From the NCBI RefSeq assembly GCF_036507355.1, contig NZ_AP027877.1: DNA of 64,000 bases. The stretch is one strand, 5' to 3'. The notes under the pieces are model-generated. The model saw only the letters and a program-made list of their open reading frames with translations, was not told the DNA's origin and made no database searches. How positions within the stretch are numbered: position 1 is the stretch's first letter; the number at the start of each line of letters is the position of its first letter. The stretch is from Escherichia coli (GTDB taxonomy: Bacteria; Pseudomonadota; Gammaproteobacteria; Enterobacterales; Enterobacteriaceae). Shown here piece after piece: positions 63,186 to 63,340 of the stretch. The position numbers and the translations under genes were made by a program.

Positions 63186-63245
63186 ATGATTGAACGTGAA
63201 CTGGGGAACTGGAAAGACTTTATCGAAGTTATGCTTCGTAAGTAA
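63186..63245 (+). CDS. ypfM: 19-aa small protein YpfM
   Basis: ATG...TAA encodes MIERELGNWKDFIEVMLRK; AGAGAGG RBS 6 nt upstream; terminator follows. Confidence 0.7.
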   Translation: MIERELGNWKDFIEVMLRK

Positions 63246-63303
63246 TTCCTGAGACAAAGTACAAACAGCAAGAACCCGCTGAGCAGGTTCTTAATCGGAA
63301 AGT

Positions 63304-63340
63304 TGAAAAAGGCGACACATTAGCATGTCGCCTTTTTTAT
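63304..63340. terminator. bidirectional Rho-independent terminator between ypfM (+) and acrD (-)
   Basis: GAAAAA-GGCGACA-CATTAGCA-TGTCGCC-TTTTTTATT. Confidence 0.75.

Follow-up and report, generated by a model that had tools for sequence, protein, structure and literature searches.

ypfM, a conserved 19-codon small-protein gene between yffB and acrD in Escherichia coli

The locus described here lies close to the end of a 64,000-nucleotide stretch of Escherichia coli DNA, the whole of which is referred to as the window, and consists of one very small gene flanked by yffB and acrD. The small open reading frame (ORF) begins with an ATG at position 63186 and extends on the plus strand through 19 codons to a TAA stop codon (63186–63245), giving the product MIERELGNWKDFIEVMLRK; this assignment draws on the translation, RefSeq, NCBIfam and conservation. 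On one side it is preceded by the divergent gene yffB (62449–62805, minus strand), which encodes an ArsC-family reductase and appears both in the ORF list and in RefSeq, and the 380-nt spacer separating the two (62806–63185) holds both of their promoters. On the other side it faces the 3′ end of the convergent gene acrD (63344–64000, minus strand; stop codon at 63344–63346), which was identified from RefSeq on identical DNA and whose reading frame runs off the end of the window. On DNA that is 100% identical, RefSeq labels the small ORF ‘ypfM: protein YpfM’ (WP_001386977.1) and the genes of that record follow one another in the order tmcA, ypfH, ypfN, dapE, yffB, ypfM and acrD. The same position, between yffB and acrD, divergent from the former and convergent with the latter, is occupied by ypfM in the E. 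coli K-12 reference, and the match of this region to K-12 MG1655 is likewise 100%. Using megablast, the yffB–acrD spacer was matched in 5425 of 5426 complete E. coli genomes and the 91 nt around the ORF were found in 5424, K-12 MG1655 and BL21(DE3) among them; the gene is present as a single copy. The peptide, submitted with one X appended to its 19 residues, matches the NCBIfam equivalog model NF033843.1 (small_YpfM) across the entire profile (1–19 of 19) with 59.2 bits (E = 2.4e-16), the cutoff of the model being 33 bits, and a search of Pfam returned no family for it. It is virtually certain that this ORF is the annotated E. coli small-protein gene ypfM, a genuine protein-coding gene that was already known. 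A preliminary description of this DNA had spoken of a ‘YpfM-like’ small ORF, a designation that can be made more exact since, by RefSeq on identical DNA and by the equivalog model, the ORF is ypfM itself; the span assigned to it there, 63186–63340, accurately takes in the ORF, the 3′UTR and the terminator. The accompanying remark that proteins of this size are easily missed also proved apt, as an ORF list with a minimum of 20 amino acids omits ypfM too.

A consensus scan of the region returned one sigma-70-like promoter, located on the plus strand at 63132–63160, in which a -35 hexamer TTCACC (63132–63137) is separated by a 17-nt spacer from a -10 hexamer TAGAAT (63155–63160). These hexamers are identical to those of the constitutive RpoD promoter assigned to ypfM by genomic SELEX, TTCACC-17-TAGAAT (PMC3946193). 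Across the 75 orthologous loci described below, the -10 element is TAGAAT, TATAAT or TAAAAT in 64, the -35 element is TTCACA in 32 and the distance from the -10 element to the ATG is 25 nt in 50. The divergent promoters of ypfM and yffB have been reported to share an H-NS site in their common spacer (PMC3946193) and, in Salmonella, a MarA site was located by ChIP within the ypfM<>yffB spacer (PMC10268841). A conserved block is also apparent just upstream of the -35 element, reading CAATCACAGCAATTG(G/A)TTAAA in many genera and corresponding to about 63101–63125 in the window. A Shine-Dalgarno sequence, AGAGAGG (63174–63180, plus strand), can be read directly upstream of the ORF, its GAGG ending 5 nt before the ATG, and either AAGAGAGG or GAGG stands at the same distance from the ATG in nearly all 75 loci, in keeping with the earlier claim that the ORF has a ribosome-binding site of its own. 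Transcription is inferred to begin near 63167, which would yield an RNA of ~175–180 nt composed of a 5′UTR of ~19 nt, the 19-codon ORF and a 3′UTR of ~95 nt that reaches to an intrinsic terminator. The conserved sigma-70 promoter drives a monocistronic ypfM transcript furnished with a strong Shine-Dalgarno sequence. The interior of the 3′UTR (63246–63305, plus strand) includes a hairpin at 63269–63293, which folds with -9.6 kcal/mol on the plus strand and -14.5 kcal/mol on the minus strand; it is limited to Escherichia, unrelated hairpins being found at that place in other genera. Between the stop codon and the terminator lie 32–95 nt depending on the genus, and neither the sequence nor the length of the 3′UTR is conserved.

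The intrinsic terminator hairpin (63306–63338) can be drawn on both strands. It comprises an A-tract (63306–63310), the arm GGCGACA (63311–63317), an 8-nt loop, the arm TGTCGCC (63326–63332) and a T-tract (63333–63338) whose end is 5 nt away from the stop codon of acrD; a terminator scan of the plus strand reported it as a 14-pair hairpin at 63304–63339. The plus-strand RNA folds with -22.3 kcal/mol (z = -5.1) and is followed by UUUUUUAUU, and the minus-strand RNA folds with -18.0 kcal/mol (z = -4.8) and is followed by UUUUUCAACUUU. A simple scan made no call on the minus strand at this hairpin because the U-tract is taken up in A:U pairs. In 71 of the 75 orthologous loci there is a GC hairpin followed by a T-tract, mostly with 4–7 A residues on its 5′ side, and in most of these 71, across genera, the A-tract, from which the minus-strand U-tract derives, and the T-tract are both kept. 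When 30 diverse transcripts were folded together with RNAalifold, the terminator was the only structure to display compensatory changes (6 pairs). A GC-rich hairpin with an A-tract on its 5′ side and a T-tract on its 3′ side, placed between convergent genes, corresponds to the sequence description of a bidirectional terminator. Bidirectional terminators between convergent genes, at which polymerases collide, have been described in E. coli (bioRxiv 10.1101/2022.10.23.513370). The hairpin therefore fits the proposal of the preliminary description that ypfM and convergent acrD have a terminator in common, both strands offering a fold with a U-tract and the A-tract being kept, and on this sequence evidence it probably ends the transcription of both genes.

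An ORF of this length has little weight when taken by itself. The window contains 417 ATG-initiated ORFs of 15–30 codons, 8 of which have an SD-like 4-mer 5–10 nt upstream; as this number of ORF and SD combinations arises by chance, the case for ypfM has to rest on other evidence, and conservation is decisive. Orthologous loci were collected from Enterobacterales by anchoring on YffB, taking one genome per species, and the ORF was then sought within the resulting 80 loci by tblastn, the anchor being YffB, not YpfM, so that loci in which the small ORF was missing or degraded would show up. The genera sampled include Escherichia, Citrobacter, Enterobacter, Klebsiella, Kosakonia, Cedecea, Buttiauxella, Yersinia, Erwinia, Dickeya and Lonsdalea. 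The ORF was recovered at 75 of the 80 loci, a count of presence and absence that applies to yffB-anchored loci and is blind to ypfM elsewhere in a genome. ATG is the start codon of all 75 copies, of which 72 are exactly 19 codons long; the position of the stop is kept, with TAA used in 49, TGA in 22 and TAG in 4. The three length variants, from Lelliottia nimipressuralis (30 aa), Erwinia psidii (25 aa) and Yersinia nurmii (20 aa, one residue more), differ only at the extreme C-terminus, where the last one or two codons are changed or residues are added. Frameshifts or stop codons in homologues had been put forward as the sign of a spurious ORF, and none is found internally in any of the 75 orthologous loci. 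The 55 distinct nucleotide versions specify only 24 peptides, and the column entropy at codon positions 1, 2 and 3 is 0.23, 0.23 and 0.71, respectively. Within the ypfM frame the pooled Nei-Gojobori estimate of dN/dS is 0.11, compared with 1.76 and 1.82 for the two forward frames shifted from it and with 1.97, 0.27 and 2.20 for those on the antisense strand. The comparison of synonymous with non-synonymous changes across species that had earlier been suggested as a check is therefore favourable, changes falling mostly at third codon positions, and the pattern points to an ORF that is under purifying selection as a protein across Enterobacterales.

The neighbourhood of the gene is nearly as constant. 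In 68 of the 75 loci, ypfM and acrD stand tail-to-tail, 72–255 nt apart in 67 of them and 455 nt apart in Yersinia, and the five yffB loci that lack ypfM have no acrD there either. In two Erwinia species ypfM still adjoins acrD and yffB is located ~3 kb away, and in Dickeya oryzae ypfM adjoins yffB, with cspE, crcB and lipA in the place of acrD. Lonsdalea has the same neighbours as Dickeya oryzae, but is without ypfM. A strict co-occurrence of ypfM and acrD was considered and is rejected, since the Dickeya oryzae gene persists beside yffB with no acrD alongside. Linkage is strong to acrD and to yffB and absolute with neither, and no clear partner emerges from synteny; at the phylogenetic depth sampled, the association with both genes may be plain synteny.

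The peptide itself has been observed directly. In a 2025 study, top-down mass spectrometry detected YpfM with 100% coverage of its 19 residues and with formyl-Met retained; it was also detected by DIA and PRM, and an earlier proteome study had seen it as well (PMC12529367). By PRM it was detected in all replicates grown in low-Mn minimal medium and in none of the other conditions (PMC12529367), and it follows from these published mass spectrometry data that the peptide accumulates in cells. Eight residues are invariant among the orthologues (M1, E5, W9, K10, F12, I13, M16 and L17), five are nearly so (I2, G7, E14, R18 and K19) and only two positions are free, namely position 4 (R/H/T/V/L/I) and position 15 (V/G/D/A/Q and others). 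A hydrophobic stripe of I2, L6, W9, I13 and M16 follows a 4-3-4-3 spacing, with M1, F12 and L17 on its flanks, and when plotted on a helical wheel the hydrophobic residues fall at 0–160 degrees, positions 4 and 15 being adjacent to one another on the polar face at 300 and 320 degrees. The Eisenberg hydrophobic moment has its maximum, 0.546, at exactly 100 degrees per residue, which is modest support for a helix as 2.8% of shuffled sequences attain the same value. The peptide has a mean Eisenberg hydrophobicity of -0.12, and acidic and basic residues, four of each, occupy 8 of its 19 positions; this low hydrophobicity together with the eight charges indicates that YpfM is not a membrane peptide. 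Given the natural 30-aa Lelliottia variant and a 24-sequence family alignment, AlphaFold2 produced one helix spanning residues 2–29, with a pLDDT of 86 and 92 over the first two ten-residue blocks, a result to be read with caution, as AlphaFold is prone to return helices for short peptides. When PDB sequences were searched with a profile, no solved structure containing YpfM was retrieved, a weak negative because chains of fewer than 20 residues were excluded and a bound YpfM chain would be invisible. On these models, YpfM is very probably a single soluble amphipathic α-helix.

How such a helix might act can be approached from its shape and by analogy. Docking of a hydrophobic face onto a larger protein is the usual mode of action of characterised bacterial micro-proteins, and it is the one by which AzuC and SpfP act (PMC8915982, PMC8916003). 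Of the conceivable modes for YpfM the likeliest is a similar one, in which its invariant hydrophobic face would dock onto a larger protein, or self-associate, and so modulate its target. That YpfM works by binding a protein partner is a tentative suggestion, to which we assign somewhat less than even odds. The literature naming ypfM, primary small-protein papers aside, reports no function, partner or phenotype.

Other readings of the locus assign a role to the RNA itself. The sequence from 63225 to 63344 on the plus strand, which covers the last 7 codons, the 3′UTR and the terminator, matches the Rfam family STnc250 (RF01409) over model positions 1–94 with 37.1 bits (E = 4.2e-5), a score that does not reach the gathering score of 42. 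In Salmonella, STnc250 lies between acrD and yffB and was listed as ‘ypfM ORF’, that is, as the ypfM mRNA; it was represented by 24 reads after Hfq co-immunoprecipitation against 6 in the control, a 4-fold enrichment, and on Northern blots it gave a band of ~220 nt attributed to a stable mRNA that is dependent on growth phase (PMC2515195). The transcript could be a dual-function RNA of the type exemplified by AzuCR and by Spot 42/SpfP, serving both as the mRNA for YpfM and as an Hfq-dependent base-pairing regulator, sRNA target or sponge. Such a role would be compatible with the match of the 3′ part to a family described in Rfam as an ‘Hfq binding RNA’, with the enrichment on Hfq, with a 3′ end formed of terminator and U-tract, a type bound by Hfq, and with S. 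Typhi RNA-seq, in which this was the most abundant of the mapped RNAs from the Hfq study (PMC2704369); precedents for dual function are also available (PMC8915982, PMC8916003). Synonymous sites have a bearing on this question too. In 60 genomes, and relative to an amino-acid-specific baseline from yffB, dapE and the 3′ end of acrD, synonymous-site variation in ypfM is 0.59 times that of the neighbouring genes, a level to which only 12 of 634 control windows of 19 codons fall; at Gly7 the rare codon GGG is fixed in 97% and at Leu17 CTT in 84%, and of 25 Gly columns in the controls none is as low as Gly7. If the RNA did have a second function, the frozen synonymous sites of codons 5–10 (GAA-CTG-GGG-AAC-TGG-AAA) would be the candidate interaction site, although this is doubtful. 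However, the first 19 codons of dapE are equally constrained (0.63), so that an ordinary start-proximal effect suffices and the synonymous constraint, though real, is not counted as evidence. Fixation of GGG at Gly7 and of CTT at Leu17 is left without explanation by the start-proximal effect. Moreover, the Hfq enrichment is weak and comes from few reads, the interior of the 3′UTR shows no conserved sequence or length and only the terminator carries compensatory changes, no base-pairing target is reported in the literature naming ypfM, and in Salmonella STnc250 was reassigned to the small mRNAs by its own authors (PMC2515195). A dual role of this kind is considered unlikely; a weaker variant would have the YpfM peptide modulating the neighbouring RND pump AcrD. 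Far less tenable is the more radical proposal that STnc250 is a non-coding sRNA and the ORF within it fortuitous and untranslated. The locus was indeed first found as an sRNA candidate, with an orphan promoter–terminator pair and Hfq co-immunoprecipitation reads, and the 8 cases in the window show that an ORF of this size can have an SD-like motif by chance. Nevertheless, three-base periodicity is evident and the dN/dS of 0.11 is confined to this forward frame, its mirror in the antisense frame aside; the ATG, the SD and the position of the stop are all kept while the stop codon itself varies, and the intact peptide was seen by top-down mass spectrometry (PMC12529367). The conservation pattern and the published detection of the peptide together refute this proposal, to which hardly any credence can be given.

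As a further alternative, ypfM might be a cis-acting element and not a trans-acting protein, either as a leader or regulatory peptide that controls a neighbour through its translation or through convergent transcription that tunes acrD by polymerase collision at the terminator between them, the peptide being incidental. In its favour are the close tail-to-tail arrangement with acrD in 67 of the 75 loci, the joint absence of acrD and ypfM from five yffB loci and the collisions known at bidirectional terminators of convergent E. coli genes (bioRxiv 10.1101/2022.10.23.513370). Yet the strand that encodes ypfM carries no further gene downstream of it, the ORF being followed by a terminator and convergent acrD, which renders classical attenuation impossible, and purifying selection is strong on the amino-acid sequence and not merely on translation. 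In addition, the peptide accumulates in cells (PMC12529367) and Dickeya keeps ypfM without acrD, and a purely cis-acting role is accordingly judged quite improbable. Two minus-strand ORFs overlap ypfM, at 63044–63271 (75 aa) and 63078–63257 (59 aa), and it might be argued that the real gene is antisense, given that the antisense frame sharing its third codon positions with ypfM is open over the 54 nt compared in 55 of 55 distinct sequences and has a dN/dS of 0.27. This value is, however, the expected mirror of the sense frame and is weaker than 0.11, and the antisense frame varies between 30 and 118 codons from stop to stop among species, which is not the behaviour of a gene; no conserved start or RBS is apparent for it and RefSeq has no annotation there. 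An antisense gene is to be regarded as extremely improbable. The same is true of a type I toxin-like peptide, a comparison invited by size. The Ibs toxins are 18–19 aa long, and similar length and a small stand-alone transcript are the only features that YpfM has in common with them. By contrast, YpfM is hydrophilic, has no transmembrane stretch and is not membrane-inserting, its gene is single copy, the peptide is readily detected at steady state and Rfam gave no match to an antisense RNA family. The best explanation of the locus as a whole therefore remains the monocistronic ypfM gene of Escherichia coli, with a probability of roughly 85%, a figure that is weighted towards the claim of identity.

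Nothing in this account is new in kind, as the comparative statistics document what the annotation already asserts. The gene has been annotated for well over a decade, has an NCBIfam model of its own, and its product ranks among the small proteins that mass spectrometry picks up most frequently; a Salmonella paper of 2008 already cites earlier work in E. coli for its prediction (PMC2515195). The value of the case lies rather in its use as a positive control, in which a genuine gene of 19 codons, lost from ORF tracks, was recovered from raw sequence. Residual interest stems from the fact that YpfM is among the shortest conserved enterobacterial proteins and yet is without an assigned function. 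For functional studies, the comparative data offer eight invariant residues on one helical face and two free positions on the other, and further leads are provided by the linkage to acrD and yffB and by the unusually constrained synonymous sites.

When set against known systems, the ORF shows no difference from YpfM of E. coli (b4606; NF033843; WP_001386977.1), with which it agrees in sequence, length, neighbours (yffB and acrD), promoter hexamers and annotation. Attenuator leader peptides such as MgtL and TnaC depend on a gene that follows them on their own strand. ypfM resembles them in the length of its ORF and in its strong RBS, but differs in that a terminator and a convergent gene follow directly and in that its peptide is conserved and accumulates. 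AcrZ, a 49-aa partner of the RND pump AcrB, possesses a transmembrane helix and is encoded by a gene that is not adjacent to acrB. The likeness to YpfM is that of a small protein tied to an RND pump, since ypfM adjoins the RND gene acrD in most genera; however, YpfM is charged and soluble, and its linkage to acrD is broken in Dickeya. STnc250 occupies the orthologous position and covers the end of the ORF, the 3′UTR and the terminator, and its original authors state that the ypfM ORF lies within it; the interior of the 3′UTR in E. coli has diverged, carrying 37 nt in place of the 13 of the model. The Rfam match reflects the orthology of the terminator and of the last part of the ORF, and the ‘sRNA’ label is historical, its authors having concluded that STnc250 is a small mRNA (PMC2515195). 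AzuC, the 28-aa product of the 164-nt AzuCR RNA (PMC8915982), is, like YpfM, a very small amphipathic peptide translated from a short independent transcript that had originally been listed among the sRNAs. The two share no sequence similarity, AzuC has GlpD as its known partner and its RNA has proven base-pairing targets, neither of which is reported for YpfM, and the 3′UTR of ypfM is not conserved; still, a helix that binds and modulates an enzyme provides a possible model for YpfM. SpfP, a 15-aa peptide encoded within Spot 42 (PMC8916003), likewise has no homology to YpfM and sits in a well-characterised base-pairing sRNA, but its binding to CRP demonstrates that specific regulation of a protein can be achieved by peptides with fewer than 20 residues.

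The presence of ypfM, the 19-codon gene at 63186-63245 on the plus strand, is linked, though not strictly, to that of its convergent neighbour acrD. Among the 80 yffB-anchored loci, one genome per Enterobacterales species, each of the five that lack ypfM (L052, L067, L068, L074 and L076) likewise lacks acrD upstream of yffB. In L052, the place of the two genes is taken by colicin- or bacteriocin-like small Gly-rich ORFs together with CPBP-like membrane proteins. In contrast to these five loci, Dickeya oryzae (L080) has kept ypfM without acrD. Within E. coli, ~10-15 of the 5426 complete genomes match the yffB-ypfM-acrD spacer or the ORF only in part, examples being NZ_CP088131.1 (H12) and NZ_CP148398.1 (H27), which suggests that the locus occasionally undergoes deletion or insertion.

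YpfM also varies naturally in length at its C-terminus, reaching 30 aa in Lelliottia nimipressuralis (L023), 25 aa in Erwinia psidii (L077) and 20 aa in Yersinia nurmii (L072). In L. nimipressuralis the usual stop codon is gone and the frame extends into the 3'UTR, entering a stretch that is well conserved in the related Enterobacter and Leclercia genomes (ATTCAGGAAGAA.TGCAAGAGCAC). Another annotated small protein gene lies near ypfM: ypfN (61090-61290, minus strand; 66 aa, 'YpfN family protein'), located directly downstream of dapE.

Synonymous change is unusually scarce in ypfM codons 5-11 (63198-63218) and at 63234-63236 (Leu17). Wherever the loci have the residues concerned, GAA, AAC and AAA are the sole codons used at positions 5, 8 and 10, respectively, whilst across ~60 species the Gly codon is the rare GGG in 97% and that for Leu17 is CTT in 84%. 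Overall, synonymous variation in ypfM is 0.59 times that of the neighbouring genes. As the first 19 codons of dapE give a comparable ratio (0.63), this low variation may reflect a start-proximal effect, which would leave the GGG preference unaccounted for.

Directly upstream of the ypfM -35 element lies a block conserved across genera (~63101-63125), which reads CAATCACAGCAATTG(G/A)TTAAA in many of them and GTAGTCATCGCAGCAATCGAG in the window. Its position is where an activator site would be expected. Two regulators have been located in the ypfM/yffB spacer, H-NS in E. coli (PMC3946193) and MarA in Salmonella (PMC10268841).

On the other side of the gene, the ypfM 3'UTR contains a second hairpin (63269-63293), whose minus-strand fold (-14.5 kcal/mol, z = -4.05) is more stable than its plus-strand fold (-9.6 kcal/mol, z = -1.8). 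Since a U-rich stretch comes after it on the minus strand, this hairpin may serve acrD as a back-up terminator that stops read-through. The hairpin is restricted to Escherichia, with unrelated hairpins occupying the same place in other genera.

The window contains no tRNA genes, and its only Rfam matches above threshold are sroE (7528-7619, plus strand; 114.6 bits) and ES036/CssrF (16098-16140, minus strand; 52.4 bits). The terminator at 63305-63338 weakly matches the 3' ends of CsrC (19.8 bits) and Ysr186 (23.5 bits), far under the gathering scores of these families, and its resemblance to both looks like generic terminator similarity.
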